From NCBI GenBank assembly GCA_963719005.1, contig CAVRAR010000014.1, positions 1,392,901 through 1,456,900 of the forward strand: a stretch of 64,000 bases of DNA, written 5' to 3'. Below the pieces are notes generated by a model. That model was not told where the DNA came from, did no database searches, and worked only from the letters and a program-made list of their open reading frames with translations. A program made the translations under genes and the position numbers. Below, piece after piece: positions 7,059 through 56,230 of the stretch. This DNA comes from an uncultured Planctomycetia bacterium. Lineage in GTDB: Bacteria; Planctomycetota; Planctomycetia; Pirellulales; Thermoguttaceae. The stretch's first letter is position 1. Every line of letters begins with the position of its first letter.

Positions 7059-9337
7059 ATGTTGCGAGACGGCCTTTTCCGATTCATCCGCTTGGCGGCT
7101 GTCGCTTTGTGTCTGACGGCGATCCTATCCGCGAATTCTGCAACCGCACAAGCCCCGAAGGCCAAACCACCGAAGGCCGACGAGCCGGCGGCGGCGAAGG
7201 AGGAGAAGAAGACCGACATCGACAAGATTTTGTCGGACAAGACGCCGCCCGAGAACGCCGCCGTCGCGGCGATTCTCGATACCAAGCCGACCACGCCCGA
7301 GGAATGCGTCCGTGCGGCGAAATTGCTGTTCGATTTCGATCGGGCGGATCTGGCCAAGGGGTTTCTTGAAGAAGGCTCTCGACGCGAATCTCGATCAGCA
7401 ACAGTTGGCCGATCTCGGCGAAGCAGATCGGCTCGCCGCTGTTCTTCGATCTGCGCGACCGGTCCGCGCTGCAGCCCGAGGCCAGGCAGCTTGCCGACGC
7501 CGTTGCCGCGGCCGTCAAGGCCAGGCTCGAAGACAGCCAGCGAATCGCCGGGCTGATCCAACAACTGCAAGACCCGTCGGCCGAGAAGCGTTTGCAGGCG
7601 ATTATCGGATTGCAAAAATCCGGCGCGGCGGCCGTCGGTCCGCTGATCGCCGTGTTGGCCGATCCGGCACGCGCCGCCGAGCACGCGAACGTGCGAGCGG
7701 CTTTGGCCGAGATGGGCCGAGCTGCGGAGCCGCCGCTGGTGGCTGTCGTCGAGCAGGCCGATCCGAAGACGGCGGTCCAGGCGATCGAGGTGCTCGGCGA
7801 GATGAACAACGCGAGGATGGCGTTCTGCCTGCTGCGGCCGGCTCTGTCGGACAAGAGCGACCCGGCGGTGCGCGAGGCGGCGGCCGCCGCTCTGAAAAAG
7901 CTGGGCGTTGCCGTTCCCAGTCGAGCCGAGGCCGTCAAGCGGCTTGTCCAGGACGCGAAGGACTATTTTGAGCGTCCCGCTAACGTCGAGGATTCGGCCG
8001 CGGGTGCGGAAAAGACGCCGCTGTGGCGATGGGACGCGGCTCGCCGGCAGCCCGTGGCCCGGGTCTGCACGCAAAACGACGTGGCCCGGGCGTTCTTCGC
8101 CCAGGAGGCTCGCGATGCTTACGCCATAGCGCCGAACGATGCGTTGGCTCGCCTCCTCTACTTGGCTACGATGCTCGAACGGGCGGCGTACGACAACGGT
8201 TTGGATCGGCCGTTGGATGCGAAGAACCCCGCGGCGGTCGAGGCAGCTCGATTCGGCGCGAAACAGATCGAGGAAGTGCTGACGTATGCCATGGCCGACA
8301 ATCGTCCGGCAGCGGCGGCAGCGGCGGCGCGACTGTTGGGTCAAATCGGCACGGCCGCCGAACTGCTCTACCGCGGCGCCTGGCCGTCGCCGTTGGCGCT
8401 GGCCGTCCAATCGCCCGACCGCCGCCTGCGCATGGCCGCCTGGAGGCCATCGTGCGGCTGCAACCGGCCAGACCGTTCGCCGGGTCGAGCTACGTGTTGC
8501 CGGCGCTGGGGTTCTTCGCCGGCAGCAGCGGCTCTCGCCATGCATTGGTCGCCGCTCCGAGCCTTATGGAGGCGCGGGAGTTGGCGGGCATGCTCGTCGG
8601 CGGCCGGCTTCGTCACCGATACGTTCACCAACGGCAAGGAATTGGTCCTCAGGGCCGCGCAATCGCCCGACTACGAGTTCGCGTTGATCGACGTGACGAT
8701 CGACCGACCCGTAATCGGCATCCTCTTGCAGCAGTTGAGGCACGACGCTCGAACGGCGTCGCTCCGCGTGGGGCTCATCGCCCGGTCGGGCGATTTCCAT
8801 GAGGCCGAACGTCTCGCGGGGCTCGATCCGTTGACAAAGGCATTCTCGCGGCCGCACGACGACGCGGCCTTCCGTTGGCAACTCGATCAGTTGGCGAGAC
8901 TGTCGCCGCAGAGCTTCGTCGGCTTCGAGGCTCGCCAGCGGCAAGCGGTCGAGGCCCTCGATCTGCTGGCCGAACTCGCCCAATCGTCGGGCAGTCTTTA
9001 CGATCTGCGGAGCGTGCAGAAATACCTCATCGCGGCGACGCACAATCCGAAGCTCGCCGCGAAGGCGGTCGCCGTGCTGGCCGAAGTCAACTCCGCCGAG
9101 AGCCAGCAGACGCTGGTCGACCTGGCGAGCCGCTTCACCTCGCCCTTGCCGCTGCGTCAGGCGGCGGCCAAGGCGTTTCGTCAAAACACCCAGCAACACG
9201 GCATCCTGTTGACGGCCGAGGAAATCCGCCGACAATACCAGCGATACAATGAGAGCGAAAAGCTGGATGCCCCCACACAGCACGTGCTAGGGCTGATCCT
9301 CGATTGTCTGGAAGTCGGAGCGCCGAAGAAGAAATAG
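7059..9337 (+). CDS. secreted HEAT/PBS-lyase-like repeat protein, several frameshifts
   Basis: Signal peptide [32 protein letters not shown]. Repeated ..AV..AA..ALGKIG.. HEAT-like units. Frame changes near 7380, 7560 and 8400-8600. Confidence 0.5.
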
Positions 9338-9435
9338 AATCGGAGGAGAGCGAAGAAAATCGAGAGCAGATCGCTGCGAAGCCGCAAGCGGCTTTCCAAT
9401 CCCTAATCCCTAGCCCCTAATCCCTGCCCCCTCCC

Positions 9436-10495
9436 ATGCCCCGCATTCCGCCGAACGTTGATCTGAACGAAACCGGGCCGCCGATCCCGGGGCTGATCGG
9501 CTCGGGACCGGCGATGGAACACGTCTACCGGCTGACGCGGCAGGTCGCCCGGTCGAACGCCTCGGTGCTGCTGCTCGGCGAGACGGGCACCGGCAAGGAA
9601 CTGATCGCCAAGGCGATTCACCGCCTCAGCCCGCGCGGCAGCGGCCCCTTCATCCGCGTCAACTGCGGGGCGCTCGCCGAAAATCTGCTGGAGAGCGAGT
9701 TGTTCGGGCACGTCCGCGGGGCGTTCACCGGCGCTGATCGACAACCGCACCGGACGGTTCGAGGCCGCACACACCGGCACCGTCTTCCTCGACGAAGTCA
9801 ACTCGACCAGTCCCAAGCTCCAGGTCAAACTGCTCCGCGTTTTGCAGGAGCACGAGTTCGAGCGCGTCGGCGACACGCAAACCATCCGCGTCGATACCCG
9901 CGTGATCGCCGCGAGCAACTGCGACCTGCTGGAAGAGACCGAGGCGGGCCGTTTCCGCGAAGATCTCTACTATCGGCTGAACGTGATAACGATCTACCTG
10001 CCGCCCTTGCGCGAGCGGCGCGAAGACATTCCATCGCTGGTCGGCTATTTTCTGAAGATTTACAACGAAGAGAACCTGCGGCACGTGCCGCACGTCGAGC
10101 CCGCCGCCATGCAGGCGTTGCAGGATTACTCGTGGCCGGGCAACGTGCGGGAATTGCAGAACTACATCGAGCGCGCGGTCGTCTTGGCCCCCGGCGATGA
10201 ATTGACCCGCGACCTGCTGCCCGAGGCGGTGTTGGGCGGCCGGCCGCGCCGCATCGGCCGCCTGCGGGCCGCCGACGTGGAAACGCTCGCCTCGGAACTG
10301 GTGCAGCAGGGCATCGAGACCGCCGGCGTCTCGGCCGAGAACCTCTACGCCACGGTGGTCAATCGCGTCGAGCGCGAGTTGATCGTCCAGGTGATGGCCG
10401 CCTGCGACAACGTGCAAATCAAAGCCGCCGAGCGCCTCGGCATCAACCGAAACACGCTGCACAAGAAGCTCAATGAATATGGGCTGGAGAAGTGA
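9436..10495 (+). CDS. sigma-54-dependent transcriptional activator with no N-terminal sensor/receiver domain, frameshifted
   Basis: Walker [25 protein letters not shown] motif, then after a frame change near 9725-9842 ..[21 protein letters not shown] and a C-terminal Fis-type HTH (..[15 protein letters not shown]). Confidence 0.85.
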
Positions 10496-10506
10496 AGGAG
10501 ATCGCC

Positions 10507-11703
10507 ATGTATCTCAGCCGATTCGGTGTGAAGAACTACAAGTGTCTCGGCGATATCGACATCCCGCTGACGCCGATTCACGTGCTGATTGGGCAGAATG
10601 ACTGCGGAAAGACGAGCTTGCTGGAAGCGATGGCGGCGTTCTACTCAACTGGGGAGAAGCCCGTGTCAGAGGTCTTTCCTGAGCCGTGGGCGGGGCCGGA
10701 ACTTGTCCGTCACGGAGCGCGAGAACGGCGTGTTGAACTGTGGGGCGAATGGGCAAACCTCGCGGCAGGCGATCTCTCTTCGGCGTTTCCGACGTTTCGC
10801 TACGGTCTGTCCGTGGATTTTCCGCCTCCTGACCATCGTTCTCTCCACACAAGGAATGGATGGACCGAGACGAATGGTGAAAGACACCCGTTTCCCCCGG
10901 GGCAAGCCCTACGCGATTCTCTCGGCGAGGATCGCGTGAGAAACGAAGCGAGTGCACTTTCGATGGTCCTGATACCGGCGCACCAATACGCACTTGACGC
11001 GAGTCAAATGGCGCTGCCGGCGGGTTTTGATTCCTTGCGCAGATTTCGCCTTGCTCCGGACGGATTTGGTTTGGCGACACTCCTTGACGACATTCTCAGT
11101 TTCGACCCAAACCGATTTCTTCAAATTCAAGGAGAGTTTTGCGGTTTCTTTCCGCAATTCCGAAAAGTTCAACTAGAAACGGAGTACGGCATTGATCGCA
11201 CGGTAACAGCAGACGGGCTACCTCAATCGTCGAGGGTAACGGGCAAAGGCATTTACTTGGAGATGAACTCCGGCCAGAGGGTTCGCGCTCGCCACGCCTC
11301 TGACGGAGCGATTCTATTCCTCGGGCTCCTTGCTCTGGCGCATTCACCCCAACAGCCAGGCTCACTCTTATTGGAGGAGCCTGAGAACGGCGTATACCCG
11401 ATGCGGCTGGGGCAGATTATCAAGCTACTGAAACAGATGGTGACTCGTACCGAGGGCGTGCAGTTCCCGCAGATTGTAATAACGACGCACTCGCCCTACG
11501 TGCTGAGTTTCTTTGAGCCAGAGGAGGTAACGCTACTTAGTCGCATGTCGGGAGAGCCGGATGCTCCCGTCCGCGCCCGGCCGCTCCGCGACGCTCCGAA
11601 CATCCGCGAACGATTAGGCAACGATTTCTATTTGGGCGAACTTTGGTATAACCTGAGTGAAGGAGAACTGTTCGGTGACGAGCCGCGCCAAAGTTGTGAT
11701 TGA
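10507..11703 (+). CDS. ABC-type (AAA_21/AAA_15-like) ATPase, defense-associated family
   Basis: Walker A GQNDCGKTSLLEAM, Walker B/D-loop LLLEEPENGVYP, H-loop ITTHSPYVL. Start is 12 nt after the sigma-54 activator stop. About 55% GC. Confidence 0.75.
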   Translation: MYLSRFGVKNYKCLGDIDIPLTPIHVLIGQNDCGKTSLLEAMAAFYSTGEKPVSEVFPEPWAGPELVRHGARERRVELWGEWANLAAGDLSSAFPTFRYGLSVDFPPPDHRSLHTRNGWTETNGERHPFPPGQALRDSLGEDRVRNEASALSMVLIPAHQYALDASQMALPAGFDSLRRFRLAPDGFGLATLLDDILSFDPNRFLQIQGEFCGFFPQFRKVQLETEYGIDRTVTADGLPQSSRVTGKGIYLEMNSGQRVRARHASDGAILFLGLLALAHSPQQPGSLLLEEPENGVYPMRLGQIIKLLKQMVTRTEGVQFPQIVITTHSPYVLSFFEPEEVTLLSRMSGEPDAPVRARPLRDAPNIRERLGNDFYLGELWYNLSEGELFGDEPRQSCD

Positions 11704-50140: not shown

Positions 50141-50590
50141 CTACGGCAGGTGCCCCAGGTCATCCAAATCCTTGGGCCGGCCCACAGCTTGCTTGTTGGT
50201 TTTCAGATCCGCTAGGGAAATGACGCTCACTTCCACGGCGTCCAACAGCGTCACTGTACGATTCTTGAAGCTCCGGACGAAGTCGATTCCCTCGACGCTT
50301 GTGATGATGTCGATTTGCAGCGGCGGCACTCCAATCCGCAACACCTTGTTACTGGCCATAAACGTTGCCGCCGATAGCGAGTCGGAGCTGAAACCAAACT
50401 TCCGAAGCGCGCGCACCAGCGCCGCGGCGTTGGCGGGAGTTGCGGCAATCCAGACATCCATGTCGCCGGTGGCGCGTGGGTAGCCGTAATGTCCCACGGC
50501 ATACCCGCCCACCAACAAATACTCAACTCCCTCCGAGTTCAACAACCGTAAGAACTCTTTGAAGTCGTTCGGCAGATGGATCGTAGCCAT
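50141..50590 (-). CDS. minimal nucleotidyltransferase-fold protein (MNT/DUF6036-like), putative toxin, paralog of 34097-34675
   Basis: ..LLVGGYAVGHYGYPRATGDMDVWI.. GG..(n)..DxD motif. Confidence 0.45.
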   Translation of the reverse strand: MATIHLPNDFKEFLRLLNSEGVEYLLVGGYAVGHYGYPRATGDMDVWIAATPANAAALVRALRKFGFSSDSLSAATFMASNKVLRIGVPPLQIDIITSVEGIDFVRSFKNRTVTLLDAVEVSVISLADLKTNKQAVGRPKDLDDLGHLP

Positions 50591-50741
50591 AGTGGATTTG
50601 CCGCATGAGTTCGAGGGCTGCCAGGCGTTCCTCCGGCGTTTTCGACCACCAACAAGTGCGATCCTCTTCGGCGGCCTCGGCGAATGTCATCACCGAGAAG
50701 GCCGTCTTGTCCATTCTTGTGGATCGCACGAGATCAGTCAT
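50523..50741 (-). CDS. small partner protein (antitoxin-like), paralog of 33826-34107
   Basis: 72 aa from MTDLVRS... Overlaps the NTase gene start. ..TPEERLAALELMRQ.. resembles the other small partner. Confidence 0.35.
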   Translation of the reverse strand: MTDLVRSTRMDKTAFSVMTFAEAAEEDRTCWWSKTPEERLAALELMRQIHYGYDPSAERLQRVLTVVELGGS

Positions 50742-50803
50742 GGTGTTCCTCAGAGTACCGACAACCGGCAGCGAAGTCAAGATAGTTCAACGCCGTGCGT
50801 TCC

Positions 50804-51898: not shown

Positions 51899-52298
51899 GG
51901 AAATCCTCGATTTAAGTTTTCACAGCACGAGCAGGGCGGTTGTATCAGGCCAGGCGTTGGTTCACGCAACGTTTTGGCAACCGGTTTTCGTGCCCCAAGA
52001 ATCTAACCGCCCGTGTACCAGCCGACAAGCGGTCATGGTTGCCTGCCTCCGATCAAAAACTGGCACTGCTGGTCCAGACATGCCCATTTGCGCAATAAGA
52101 TGCAAGATTCCTTGGAAACCTCAGGGCTGCGATGCTGTTGCAGCAGCACCATCGTGTCCCCCCAACAAAGACTGTTGCCTAATTCGAGGCAGGCCGATAC
52201 CATGAGGTGGTTCTTCGTCCGCGTGCGGAGGTTATTGGAGCGTGAGAAGCGCAATGGCAAGGGGATTTAGAACCACCCGATGGATGTAGGAGACAGAT

Positions 52299-52781
52299 AT
52301 GGACGCCTTTCTCCATGATCAAGATGAGTTTTCTTCGCTCGGACTGGTTTTCTTCGCCAATGGGTTCGTTCGGTTACTCGATGAGTACGCGACCACCGGA
52401 ATACGACCGGCGACTTTATCGGCTGATTGCGACAAGGCGATCACCGCCCTCGAGAAGCCGCAGGAAAAGACCGCCAGCGTTGGTCCATTTTCCGGGTTGC
52501 TCAGTAGCGCCGATGAAATAACAATCCTGGCTGCGACGACCGAGCGGCTTTACGGAGTGCGAACCACCGAAGCTGCAACGAGTGCGCTTGACCGGATCCA
52601 GAAAGCCGTTGGGACAATTAAGACCCAAAAGGATTTTACCGAACACCTGAGAGAAAGAATCAACGACGTAGTACGGTTTTTTGAGTGCCTGGCTGAAGAG
52701 GGGCTCGCCAACTGTCAGCGGCGCGCCCTTGGAGACATGACGGAAGCCGAGCGCATATGGCAGCATTACGCGATGACCTAG
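52299..52781 (+). CDS. hypothetical protein, low-GC island
   Basis: ORF with plausible composition and about 53% GC. No recognisable domain. Confidence 0.3.
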   Translation: MDAFLHDQDEFSSLGLVFFANGFVRLLDEYATTGIRPATLSADCDKAITALEKPQEKTASVGPFSGLLSSADEITILAATTERLYGVRTTEAATSALDRIQKAVGTIKTQKDFTEHLRERINDVVRFFECLAEEGLANCQRRALGDMTEAERIWQHYAMT

Positions 52782-53080
52782 CAACTGAAAGCACGGCCCT
52801 CCTCTCGATCGTTAGCCACGTAAAGGGTTTTCTTGACGACCGCCGCTCGGAAAAGAACTACCTTTTCGAGACGGACGAGTTCTTTGTGTACGTGAACGAG
52901 GCCCTTGAGGCTATTCGCAACTTCACGAAGGAAGTTGTTGCATGCAAGTCCTCCGTGCGCCGGTCCACATACCTCAAGGATCTCGCTGGATTGAAGATGG
53001 TTCTTGGCCCTCTCTGCCGTTTGGTGCGTCAAGTGTCGGACGCAGACATGCTTACGGTGCCATTTCCAATCTGTCTTGAA
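52757..53080 (+). CDS. hypothetical protein, 3' end probably interrupted by IS insertion
   Basis: Overlaps the previous ORF by 25 nt. The reading frame runs into the IS left end near 53075. Confidence 0.25.
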
Positions 53081-53144
53081 CCAATTGGAAATGGAAATTC
53101 TCGGTCGCCTGGGTTAGAATCTTCCCCCAGACGAGGAGAATTTC

Positions 53145-53495
53145 ATGAGTGGACAACGACGACATTTCGGCACGGACCAGAAGGCTGCCATTCTCAAGAG
53201 GTATCTGGTCGATAAAGTGCCCATCTCGGACCTCTGCGACGAGTACGGGATCAAGCCGAACCAAATCTACGCCTGGCAGAAAATCCTGTTCGATAACGCT
53301 CCGGCCGCCTTTCACCCGGTCGCCAAACGCGAAGCCAAGAGGCTTTCCGCCCAGGAGGAGGAAGTCGCCCGACTGCGGGCCAAGCTCGTTCAGAAGAACG
53401 AGGTCATCTCCGAGTTGATGGAGGAGAACGTCCGCGCAAAAAAGAGAATGGGGAACTCTAAACGGACGTTGGGTTCCCCACGACACTCGCGATGA
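53145..53495 (+). CDS. IS3-family transposase OrfA (HTH)
   Basis: ..QKAAILKRYLVDKVPISDLCDEYGIKPNQIYAWQK.. then a leucine-zipper-like ..EEEVARLRAKLVQKNEVISELMEEN.. and RAKKR at the slippery site. Confidence 0.8.
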   Translation: MSGQRRHFGTDQKAAILKRYLVDKVPISDLCDEYGIKPNQIYAWQKILFDNAPAAFHPVAKREAKRLSAQEEEVARLRAKLVQKNEVISELMEENVRAKKRMGNSKRTLGSPRHSR

Positions 53496-53496
53496 A

Positions 53497-54432
53497 GTGG
53501 TCGATTACGTGCGGCGTTGGAACGAGCGCACGGAGATTCCCGCCAGAAAGTTCGTGGCTTGGCTCGGCATTGGTCAAAGCAAGTTCCACGATTGGAAGGA
53601 TCGCTACGGCAAGCGGAACGAACACAACGGTTGGGTGCCGCGTGACTGGTGGCTCGAAGATTGGGAGAAGCAGGCCATCATCCGCTTCTCCTTCGAGTAT
53701 CCACTGGAAGGCTACCGACGATTGGCGTTCATGATGCTCGACCGCGACGTGGTGGCCGTCAGTCCGTCGAGCGTATATCGCGTGTTGAAAACGGCGGGCC
53801 GCATCGGACGATCGACGAACAAGCCATCGAAGAAAGGCACGGGCTTCCAACAGCCGCAAAAACCCCATGAACACTGGCATATCGACATCAGCTACCTCAA
53901 CATCCACGGCACGTTTTACTACCTGACGACGATCCTCGACGGCTACAGCCGCTACACCGTGCATTGGGAGATTCGCCGCTCGATGACCGAGCAAGATGAA
54001 CTGACGATCCTGCAACGCGCGCGGGAGAAGTTCCCCAAGGAGACGCCGCGGATCATCAGCGACAATGGGTCGCAGTTTTTGGCGAAGGACTTCAAAGAGT
54101 TCATTCGCATCTGCGGGATGACGCACGTGCGCACCAGCCCGTACTATCCGCAGAGCAACGGCAAACTGGAGCGATTTCACGGGAGCATCAAGGGCGAGTG
54201 CCTGCGGCCGGGCACGCCGATCTCGCTGGAGGATGCCATCCGCATTGTGGCTCGTTACGTGGAGCACTACAACGAGGTGCGATTGCACAGCGCGATTGGC
54301 TATGTGGCGCCGGCGGACAAATTGGCGGGCCGTGAGGCGGAGATCTTCGCAGCCCGCGATCGCAAACTGACGGAGGCCCGCGAGCGTAGAAAGGAGCAGC
54401 GAGAGGCGGCCCGTTTGCGGACGGTTGCCTGA
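53497..54432 (+). CDS. IS3-family transposase OrfB (DDE integrase core)
   Basis: ..HWHIDISYL.., ..ISDNGSQF.., ..YYPQSNGKLERFHGSIK.. (D, D, E with the K/R signature). Confidence 0.85.
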   Translation: MVDYVRRWNERTEIPARKFVAWLGIGQSKFHDWKDRYGKRNEHNGWVPRDWWLEDWEKQAIIRFSFEYPLEGYRRLAFMMLDRDVVAVSPSSVYRVLKTAGRIGRSTNKPSKKGTGFQQPQKPHEHWHIDISYLNIHGTFYYLTTILDGYSRYTVHWEIRRSMTEQDELTILQRAREKFPKETPRIISDNGSQFLAKDFKEFIRICGMTHVRTSPYYPQSNGKLERFHGSIKGECLRPGTPISLEDAIRIVARYVEHYNEVRLHSAIGYVAPADKLAGREAEIFAARDRKLTEARERRKEQREAARLRTVA

Positions 54433-54732
54433 TCGAAAGAAGGACGTTACGATGAGAGACGACCTGGGCGGAGGATAGGGCTCCGGTGGGAACCGACCCG
54501 AGCGCCGCCCCAGGGGTTGTGAGCGAGGTCCGGGCGGTGGTTCTGCTGCCGCCCACCTCCCTCGCTTACAACACCAAAGCGAAAAATCCAAGCACTACCA
54601 ACCAACTTCAACACCCGGACGATCCTAGCAAGCCAATCGAAGTTTCCATTTCACGCTGAACCAAGACAGCATGACCTGGATACGAAAATTCGCAACATAA
54701 CCACAAAGGCGTTCTTATTTGATGCATCTGCG

Positions 54733-55452
54733 ATGCAGCAGCGAGCACGCCGAGTTGTCTTGTCGTGGTGTGAAGAGATATTTGCGGATCTGCTTGCGAC
54801 GAGTCTCGTTGGTCCGAGCTACGCGATTGCATTTGACCGCTTGGTTCGTCTCACAGTTGCGCATTCCGACGTACATATGCGTTTCTCGGACATCCACCCC
54901 GCGAACCATTTCCGACGGACACAAATTGCCCAATTCCTGGATGAACAAGGCTGGTTTGCGGCAATTGATAGAGCAGACACGGCGAGAGCAAATGTAGATT
55001 TCGTCGCCGACATGAATACACTTAGGACGACCGGTGAGGTACCGGAGTACAAATTTCCGCTCGACAATTCGGCCTTGGCAAAGGTGTTTGTGGAGGCGTT
55101 CATTTCGCTCGTGCCACGGGTAGTCAGTGCTGTGAAGTCAATTACCGTCCATTTACCGCGGCAGATCGACGATTTTCTTCGGTATTATGGTGAGATAACA
55201 GAGAGCCTATTCCATCTCGTTGTTCCGAACGTCGTTTACGACCCAAAGTCTCATTCCATTTCTCCATCACCCGTTACTACGCTCATCTGCGGGAGTCTAG
55301 TGCTCAACCAGGATCTGGACAGCGTGTTTGCTCTTTGCGGACGCGACATGAACAACATTGAGGATCGACTTTGGGTGGAGAACCGGATTAATCGTCTTGT
55401 AATGAAGGCAATGGAAGATGCCATGGTGCTCGAAAAGTGGTGGCAAGTATGA
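54733..55452 (+). CDS. hypothetical protein, upstream partner of the dCTP-deaminase-like gene
   Basis: 239 aa, about 50% GC. Stop overlaps the downstream start (ATGA). No recognisable domain. Confidence 0.4.
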   Translation: MQQRARRVVLSWCEEIFADLLATSLVGPSYAIAFDRLVRLTVAHSDVHMRFSDIHPANHFRRTQIAQFLDEQGWFAAIDRADTARANVDFVADMNTLRTTGEVPEYKFPLDNSALAKVFVEAFISLVPRVVSAVKSITVHLPRQIDDFLRYYGEITESLFHLVVPNVVYDPKSHSISPSPVTTLICGSLVLNQDLDSVFALCGRDMNNIEDRLWVENRINRLVMKAMEDAMVLEKWWQV

Positions 55453-56108
55453 GCGTTCTCGATACGGACAGAATCCGTGAGCTTCTCCGCCTGCCGATCA
55501 GTGACCCGCATTCGTTACGCGTTACCCCGCTCCTGAGTCCAGATGATCAGGTAAAGGATGATGCGGTCGATATCCGGCTTGGCAGTTGTTTCTTGGTGCC
55601 TCGCAGTGAGAAACGCAGCACGTTTGTTCCTGGCAAAACGCCCGGGCAGGATGTGGCTCATCGACTCCACTTGTCCCCAGGGCGAGAGCTTATCTTGCCA
55701 GGGAAAGGTGTGGTTCTAGCGAGCACCTTCGAGTATATCAAGATGCCGGTGCATGTGTCAGCCCAGGTATTGCCCCGTTCCTCCATTGGCCGAATTTTCG
55801 TGACGACCGCGACCGCGACATTGGTTCACCCCTTGTACCGGGGCTGCTTGACTTTGGAGATTGTCAACTTAGGCAACGCGTCTGTCGAGCTACGGATACT
55901 ATCACGCATCGCCCAGTTGCAGTTTAGCGAAACTGGTATCAGGTCTATCGCCACGGACGGTGGTACACGGCCGGTGGCACCTGAGGACAAAGTCGCCGGT
56001 CGGTACGCAGCGGCAGTCGAACCGGAGTTTTCGGACTTTGCAGGTGACTCGTCAGAATACGCGAAGCTGCTGGCATTCCTTCCCGATACCCGTGACCAGG
56101 ACACGTAG
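55449..56108 (+). CDS. dCTP deaminase (Dcd/dUTPase-fold) family protein
   Basis: ..AVDIRLGSCF.. (VDVRLG), ..SPGRELIL.. (HPGEL), ..SSIGRIFVTTATATLVHPLYRGCLTLEIVNLGN.. aligns with the Dcd block [33 protein letters not shown]. Confidence 0.65.
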   Translation: MSVLDTDRIRELLRLPISDPHSLRVTPLLSPDDQVKDDAVDIRLGSCFLVPRSEKRSTFVPGKTPGQDVAHRLHLSPGRELILPGKGVVLASTFEYIKMPVHVSAQVLPRSSIGRIFVTTATATLVHPLYRGCLTLEIVNLGNASVELRILSRIAQLQFSETGIRSIATDGGTRPVAPEDKVAGRYAAAVEPEFSDFAGDSSEYAKLLAFLPDTRDQDT

Positions 56109-56230
56109 ATGGCCATCGGTCGTCCGGCGTTCTTGCGCCGCATGTTGTCGTTCGGTATGGTGCCACGCTCCGACTATTATGGTGTAGATCGGTTGTCAGC
56201 CAGCAAAACCCAAACGACTGCCGCAACAGT

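Follow-up and report, generated by a model that had tools for sequence, protein, structure and literature searches.

Among the described systems close to the locus analysed here is a defensive deoxycytidine triphosphate (dCTP) deaminase, in which a zinc-dependent, Cys-liganded domain of the cytidine-deaminase fold is combined with an N-terminal kinase domain (Tal et al., preprint). Our subject is a stretch of 64,000 nucleotides (nt) from an uncultured Planctomycetia bacterium of the Thermoguttaceae (GenBank assembly GCA_963719005.1, contig CAVRAR010000014.1, positions 1,392,901 to 1,456,900), referred to here as the window, and within it a region in which a preliminary description had seen a two-gene cassette beside an IS3 element. 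The cassette was said to encode an unknown protein of 239 amino acids (aa) and a 219-aa protein of the dCTP deaminase (Dcd) family, and was taken as a possible split or novel variant of a kinase-deaminase defence. AvcD, of the AvcID system, acts similarly to the kinase-linked enzyme and is controlled by a small RNA antitoxin. In our analysis the region 52299-56108 of the window is a recently inactivated copy of a conserved three-gene accessory operon, A-B-C, in which A and C are intact and B is broken. We read this operon as an accessory module of the conflict or stress type in which a putative peptidase would gate a predicted dCTP deaminase, recently inactivated in the window, and we give this reading, in which the function is predicted, a probability of about 0.5. 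Coordinates below are positions in the window, unless preceded by a locus; homologous loci are designated by L numbers and homologous proteins or cluster representatives by P numbers.

Disruption of gene B by an insertion sequence

The 239-aa open reading frame (ORF; 54733..55452) does not encode a separate partner protein, as the preliminary description had proposed, but is the tail of a gene of ~470-490 aa, B, that has been split by an insertion sequence (IS) and partly deleted. Full-length B homologs (481-491 aa) start MATLRDDL..., as does an ORF that begins at 52757 and runs in frame into the left end of the IS at 53071. This N-terminal fragment of B (52757..53071, forward strand) has 105 codons up to the left terminus of the element. 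On the other side of the IS, the frame of the 239-aa ORF is open upstream to 54670, directly at the right end of the element, and the resulting C-terminal fragment (54670..55452, forward strand) has 261 codons including the stop. When the IS is excised in silico, both pieces form one ORF. In an alignment to P0002, P0003 and P0004 the N-terminal piece corresponds to residues 1-108 and the C-terminal piece to residues ~208-491 of P0003, and the profile of the 76-member B family matches the window at positions 1-107 and 196-456 only. Comparison with the homologs shows that ~99 residues are absent under either model of the IS boundaries. The gap falls between "VPFPI" and "HDLDTK", where the relatives have FHE[IVL]GHF, and the C-terminal fragment retains the motifs W.EE.F.D, GPSY and HPA..R and is without HExGH.

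Upstream of B lies the first gene of the operon, A (52299..52781, forward strand, 160 aa), which overlaps it by 25 nt. We considered whether this ORF was part of B and rejected the idea, since it has no similarity to B homologs and is a separate conserved gene. Downstream lies gene C (55449..56108, forward strand), which encodes 219 aa from an ATG that overlaps the stop codon of B (ATGA). Both ORFs of the preliminary description and their ATGA overlap are thus real, but there are three genes, with A first, in place of a two-gene cassette. That description had also named the possibility that the 239-aa ORF was an IS-disrupted remnant of an unrelated gene; it is a remnant, though of the cognate partner gene of C. 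We regard this anatomy, an A-B-C operon with an IS-split B, as close to certain. It also holds a lesson for annotation, because an IS-split gene deposited as 'hypothetical protein' can be mistaken for a novel partner.

The IS3-family element (53072..54668, forward strand) is 1597 bp long and has imperfect terminal inverted repeats with TG...CA ends (left 53072-53097, right 54643-54668). Its ends read TGTCTTG... from 53072 and ...CAAGACA up to 54668, and the 27-nt arms are 74% complementary. It carries orfA (53145..53495, forward strand; Pfam HTH_Tnp_1, 2.7e-10) and orfB (53497..54432, forward strand; Pfam rve, 1.2e-21, and rve_3), and the transposase passes the NCBIfam equivalog transpos_IS3 (NF033516) with 165.6 bits against a cutoff of 160, so that the IS3 element reported immediately upstream of the 239-aa ORF is confirmed. 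IS3 elements usually have orfB in frame -1, together with a slippery A6G. In this copy an A6G run occurs at 53438, but orfB is shifted to the +1 frame with respect to orfA, and a stop is met after 5 codons of the -1 frame. The copy may be defective, or its expression may depend on slippage during transcription of the A run. No target-site duplication of the expected 3-5 bp is present in the flanks, which read CCAATC before the IS and GCATGA after it. This absence and the ~99 missing codons fit either a deletion of neighbouring DNA that accompanied the IS or a recombination event between two of its copies. As a target duplication we considered an 8-bp direct repeat, TGAACCAA (53077-53084 and 54657-54664), and rejected it, since the TG...CA repeats end at 53072 and 54668. 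A scan for promoters and terminators around the operon gave no convincing outward IS promoter or terminator.

Two independent assemblies, L093 and L094, are identical to the window through the left junction and end within the IS, 25 nt and 5 nt past that junction, which indicates that the insertion is real; the IS is probably multi-copy. The synonymous divergence (dS) of these two from the window is only 0.01-0.06, and they effectively come from the same population. In a more distant relative, L007 (dS 0.2-0.4), C and the end of B are found at the same place, next to mqnE. The synteny that the preliminary description would have taken as a sign of a housekeeping gene is therefore seen in L007, without making the operon a housekeeping one. 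In the comparison with L007 (dS 0.2-0.3) omega is 0.115 for the right fragment of B and 0.153 for C. From these low values we conclude that purifying selection acted on the operon through most of this divergence, and that the IS event is recent. In another copy of the operon (L005:1774-2899; C 66% identical) an IS3-type element lies ~540 bp downstream of C.

Conservation and distribution of the operon

In the relatives the order of genes is the same, with an A of ~160 aa, a 25-nt overlap, B, a 4-nt overlap and the Dcd-like C. This arrangement with overlapping genes was found in L001-L004, L008, L009 and L011/12, and it is kept in L008, L009 and L011/12 where C is only 34-44% identical. The A protein of the window is 45-50% identical to its counterparts in L001-L004, whose genes have the corresponding place and likewise overlap B by 25 nt. 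With local profiles, B was found to be the immediate upstream neighbour of C in 77 of 80 retained genome loci; in two of the exceptions C lies at a contig edge, and the third, L065, is without B. An iterated profile detected a gene of the A family ahead of B in 73 of 78 loci. In L065 (5152-6711; Solirubrobacterales) an A-like ORF directly abuts C, with no B between them. B and C are also found as in-frame fusions, in P0141 (641 aa) and P0158 (674 aa), with linkers of ~30-40 residues, and these natural fusions argue for a direct physical coupling of the two proteins.

A scan of the genome collection with the motif of the C clade, [VI]HPx[YF]RGCLT, located the operon in 129 of ~185,000 species genomes, mostly of Acidobacteriota, followed by Planctomycetota and Solirubrobacterales, a patchy distribution over three phyla. 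The viral contigs yielded no member of the C clade. A metagenome scan with distant members of the B family gave two loci only, the pattern being too generic. None of the proteins has a match in PADLOC, and a literature search found no description of A, of B or of the trio in the searchable collection. The copy in the window is ordinary in being a dead gene cluster; the operon family to which it belongs is apparently undescribed.

Predicted properties of the three proteins

The assignment of the 219-aa protein to the Dcd family, made in the preliminary description, is upheld. C matches the Pfam family DCD (PF22769) with an E-value of 2.2e-23 (83.5 bits, cutoff 27) and solved dCTP deaminases with values of 1e-15 to 1e-5, the best of them being 4xjc (1.4e-15). 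Residues S111, R115 and E137 of C align with S102, R106 and E129 of the M. tuberculosis enzyme (S111, R115 and E138 in E. coli), which are the catalytic residues of Dcd, and they are invariant across 21 clade members. A lid-like C-terminal motif, G.Y....PE, is likewise invariant in the clade. The score of C against the NCBIfam equivalog dCTP_deam (TIGR02274) is 86.4 bits and thus under the cutoff of 92.8, as is that of another clade member, P0031, with 91.8 bits. The clade has its own motif, VHPxYRGCLTLE, and a variable C-terminal extension, and the homologs of C also share the start MS[VI]L. The sugar-pocket motif [IV]DPGF reads VHPLY in C, and the His that replaces the Asp is nearly invariant in the clade. 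From these comparisons C has the dUTPase/Dcd fold and would be a cytosine-nucleotide deaminase, and activity on dCTP is predicted.

Other Dcd-family genes occur near two copies of the operon. In L022 (12263-12991, reverse strand) a second Dcd-family gene encodes an ordinary-looking Dcd (PF22769, 1e-36) that also has His at the IDPGF position, and in L006 (1843-2838, reverse strand) a second such gene encodes a 331-aa protein whose long C-terminal extension has a hydrophobic segment at its end. We had considered the exchange of His for Asp as a sign of a new substrate, and dropped this because the Dcd paralogue in L022, which is outside the operon, has the His as well.

The B protein of the window has only three relatives in the sequence database, and an exhaustive profile search with the family gave 500 cluster representatives at E <= 1e-3, mostly of ~460 aa. 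In an alignment of 76 B sequences the invariant columns are P171, H186, E187, E242, D246, G254, R288, P410 and K474, and G189 and H190 are nearly invariant. The pattern consists of HExGH and, ~50 residues further on, a W.EE.FCD helix. The AlphaFold model of B has a predicted local distance difference test score (pLDDT) of 93.3 and a predicted template modelling score (pTM) of 0.92, and consists of an N-terminal three-helix bundle, two β-strands, the HExGH helix and a large helical C-terminal part. In this model HExGH lies on a predicted helix at 180-195, and the invariant E242 and D246 lie on the helix at 225-253, a downstream helix being where gluzincins have a Glu as their third zinc ligand. 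No member of the B family has a convincing family in Pfam, where two of the 76 sequences give marginal matches to Peptidase_M48 (best E 0.027). A profile search of the PDB sequences with B found nothing, and a Foldseek search with the model gave nothing significant, the sole match at a probability of 0.5 being ZMPSTE24. We conclude from the motifs and the model that B probably has a zincin or gluzincin-type core within a novel helical architecture and is a cytoplasmic protein, and we predict that it has peptidase activity.

In about nine metagenome-assembled genomes (MAGs; L025, L026, L038, L050, L051, L064, L074, L079 and L090) the matches to the B profile, in the region ~8500-10000 of each locus, are split across frames or ORFs and the match to C is strong. 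B could have decayed repeatedly, or the splits could stem from indel errors of long-read assembly. For one distant B protein, P0155, the contig ends right after the gene.

The A family (130-165 aa) is poorly conserved, with few kept positions (FF..LE.RAL), and belongs to no family in Pfam, NCBIfam, PADLOC or PHROGs. Its composition and alignment suggest a helical protein.

Genomic context of the operon

The preliminary description had placed the cassette in DNA of about 50% guanine plus cytosine (GC). The island is indeed lower in GC than its surroundings (0.616 for the window, 0.62-0.655 for the flanking genes), but the low figure, 0.508, applies only to the 239-aa ORF, that is, the right fragment of B; the values are 0.567 for C, 0.549 for A and 0.555 for the island as a whole (52020-56230). 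The same tendency is seen across the family, in which 75 of 76 loci have an operon GC below that of the flanking DNA (median difference -8 points; Wilcoxon p ~4e-14), and the deficit holds whatever the GC of the host (0.36 to 0.68). Beyond A-B-C nothing is conserved around the operon, the most frequent neighbouring family being present in at most 17 loci. The operon behaves as horizontally circulating accessory DNA. This low GC, the rarity of the operon, the score of C below the equivalog cutoff and the second Dcd-family gene in L022 bear out the earlier suspicion that C is unlikely to be an ordinary housekeeping dcd. In the window itself we found no second dcd or dut, a span of 64 kb that is too short to decide the matter for the genome.

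At ~11 of 84 loci, and also in L009, a gene for an Xre-type helix-turn-helix (HTH) protein precedes A and is transcribed divergently from it; the window has none. Among 148 neighbours at 25 loci we identified defence genes beside a few copies of the operon, namely DISARM DrmB (twice), MADS mad3/mad8 and CapP-like genes (twice). A distant and shorter A-B pair (155 aa and 397 aa; motifs HELGH and ELASDCF) is found in L096 (1506-5329) without a Dcd-like gene, where it converges on a 731-aa prokaryotic Argonaute with a Piwi domain. This single instance may represent effector swapping, or may only reflect a defence-island context.

The commonest neighbours of the operon are DnaN, DnaA, ParA, ParB, RsmG and GyrB. 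When a locus is counted as origin-proximal if at least two of dnaA, dnaN, gyrB, parA, parB and rsmG lie within 10 kb, this is true of 26 of the 80 loci and of 17 of the 43 that have full flanks (~40%), against a chance expectation of less than one locus. By lineage, the fractions are 7/8 in Bryobacterales, 4/7 in Actinomycetota, 8/26 in Acidobacteriaceae, 6/24 in other Acidobacteriota and 1/15 in Planctomycetota. The exact position differs and may be between dnaN and gyrB, beside dnaA, beside rsmG or after parB. Examples are L014, L026, L038, L044, L050, L051, L055, L057, L059, L074 and L076-L082, with the operon at ~8000-10600 of the locus. This positional bias is far above chance. It may be that the module gains from its position, or that the conserved origin genes act as recombination anchors for its transfer.

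The copy in the window is not origin-proximal, and is flanked by a mannose-1-phosphate guanylyltransferase gene and mqnE. Just to the left of the island there is a small gene pair (50141-50780, reverse strand), possibly a toxin-antitoxin-like module, in which the gene for a 149-aa DUF6036-type nucleotidyltransferase (a borderline Pfam match, 23.1 against a cutoff of 23.6) overlaps an upstream ORF of 85 aa.

Proposed function and alternative explanations

The mechanism that we propose assigns a separate role to each protein. C would be a latent effector that converts dCTP to dUTP or dUMP, B a metallopeptidase switch that is physically coupled to C and activates it by cleaving either C itself or A, and A a variable sensor or inhibitor. 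Once triggered, C would drain dCTP and so bring the replication of phage or host DNA to a halt. Defence by nucleotide depletion is a reasonable functional analogy for such a module. The direction of regulation in this model comes from the loci in which B is lost. C is intact where B is destroyed, as in the window, or absent, as in L065, and its match is strong in the nine or so MAGs with a split B, which suggests that B activates C and is not its antidote. That B is a peptidase, that C acts on dCTP, that B regulates C in this direction and that the operon has any role against phages are inferences, and the three-part scheme of effector, switch and sensor or inhibitor is tentative, with the odds somewhat against it as a whole. 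Still more doubtful is the wider possibility that A-B-C represents a new family of systems for immunity or stress response that work by nucleotide depletion and arose by convergence, in which a latent Dcd-fold deaminase would be released by a zincin under the control of a hypervariable sensor, and in which the preference for the origin would reflect either a link to replication or a special route of horizontal transfer.

Several observations weigh against a peptidase-gated accessory module. After the IS insertion C may no longer be expressed, owing to a polar effect, and the frameshifted B genes of the MAGs may be errors of long-read assembly; the first of these weakens the inference that B is an activator. 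The model of the fusion protein P0141 has a pTM of 0.56 and a low-confidence linker, so that the docking of B and C in it is not interpretable. That C acts on dCTP is a prediction, and in its IDPGF motif His replaces the canonical Asp, although the Dcd paralogue outside the operon in L022 shares this. Neither A nor B belongs to any PADLOC, Pfam or PHROG family. The enrichment of defence genes is weak, the neighbours of the operon being mostly metabolic or otherwise ordinary genes, and a plain defence-island model does not predict a bias toward the origin of the kind seen in ~40% of the copies with full flanks.

The origin bias leads to a different explanation, in which the operon is a replication-linked module of the nucleotide pool and not an immune system. 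It would be a regulated source of dUMP and dTTP, or would balance dCTP against dTTP, and would be kept near oriC for reasons of dosage, with the window holding a decayed copy of a dispensable duplicate. Origin-region markers near the operon in several lineages and at differing exact positions, the retention of the Dcd catalytic residues in C and the mostly ordinary neighbours are all in keeping with this. On the other hand, a pool function fits poorly with an operon so sparse (129 of ~185,000 species) whose GC is below that of the flanks even at origin-proximal loci such as L014, with the fast evolution of A, with the position of C under the Dcd equivalog cutoff and with the presence of another Dcd-family gene nearby in L022. 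In addition, origin proximity is rare in Planctomycetota (1/15) and absent in the window, the loss of B is tolerated in the window, and the origin genes could merely be anchors of homologous recombination for accessory cargo. We consider this explanation unlikely.

The accessory character of the operon would also be compatible with a selfish, toxin-antitoxin-like addiction module, in which C would be a toxin acting by dCTP depletion or by a flood of dUTP, A and/or B would neutralise it, and the module would persist by post-segregational killing or genomic stabilisation without a role in defence. Compact overlapping genes, low GC, a patchy distribution, an Xre-type regulator at a subset of loci, one fast-evolving component and frequent decay are what such a module might show. 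Against it, C is intact without B in the window and in L065, and B is split in several MAGs, so that B is not an essential antidote; we found no association with plasmids or phages, and no viral contig with a member of the C clade; and three genes, one of them for an enzyme-like protein of 470 aa, are atypical of a simple toxin-antitoxin pair. This makes an addiction module a somewhat poorer candidate than a pool module. Least probable by a wide measure is the model of the preliminary description, an intact two-gene cassette that would be a split version of the published kinase-deaminase defence. It drew on the ATGA overlap of the two ORFs and on their place next to an IS in DNA of lower GC. 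The 239-aa ORF is only part of a gene that the IS has split, B is zincin-like and not kinase-like, the published enzyme joins a zinc cytidine-deaminase fold to a kinase where C has a dUTPase/Dcd fold, and the PADLOC models, those for dCTP-deaminase defences included, give no match. The model is hardly tenable on this evidence, and among the explanations weighed here the peptidase-gated dCTP-deaminase module remains the one that we favour.

Comparison with known systems

B resembles gluzincins of the M48/Ste24 and M13 types in having HExxH followed by a downstream acidic helix, but only 170-190 residues of B align with these proteins, with a high root-mean-square deviation. In other respects it recalls ImmA/IrrE (M78) and the CapP-CapH pair of the cyclic-oligonucleotide-based anti-phage signalling system (CBASS), which like B are cytoplasmic HExxH proteins of accessory or stress modules. 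These peptidases are paired with Xre-type repressors, and ~11 of the operon loci have a divergent Xre-type HTH gene as a neighbour. Unlike them, B has no match to Peptidase_M78, is about twice as long and has extra helical domains; the HTH neighbour is found at a minority of the operon loci, and the translation of B is coupled to that of an enzyme, the putative effector, to which B is sometimes fused. If our reading is correct, B would represent a new family of regulatory zincins, outside Pfam and far from any solved structure, that serves as the switch of a nucleotide-metabolising effector.

With housekeeping Dcd and the bifunctional DCD-DUT enzymes (TIGR02274; PDB 1xs1, 2qlp, 4xjc and 1ogh) C shares the PF22769 domain, the catalytic Ser, Arg and Glu and the G[RK]Y lid motif. 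It differs from them in its score under the equivalog cutoff, in the motif VHPxYRGCLTLE with its His, in its C-terminal extension and in its obligatory linkage to A and B (77 of 80 loci) within a rare operon of low GC. As in the deaminase of Tal et al. and in AvcD, a latent cytosine-nucleotide deaminase may deplete dCTP and so block replication, an activity that is predicted for C, and these systems and the operon are all accessory and patchy in distribution. The likeness would be one of function, since C has the metal-independent dUTPase/Dcd fold and is unrelated to the deaminase of Tal et al. Library searches found no kinase domain in A, B or C, and where the enzyme of Tal et al. is a single protein, the partners of C are a zincin-like B and a small, probably helical A. 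If the proposed function holds, dCTP-depletion immunity would have evolved at least twice, from unrelated deaminase folds.

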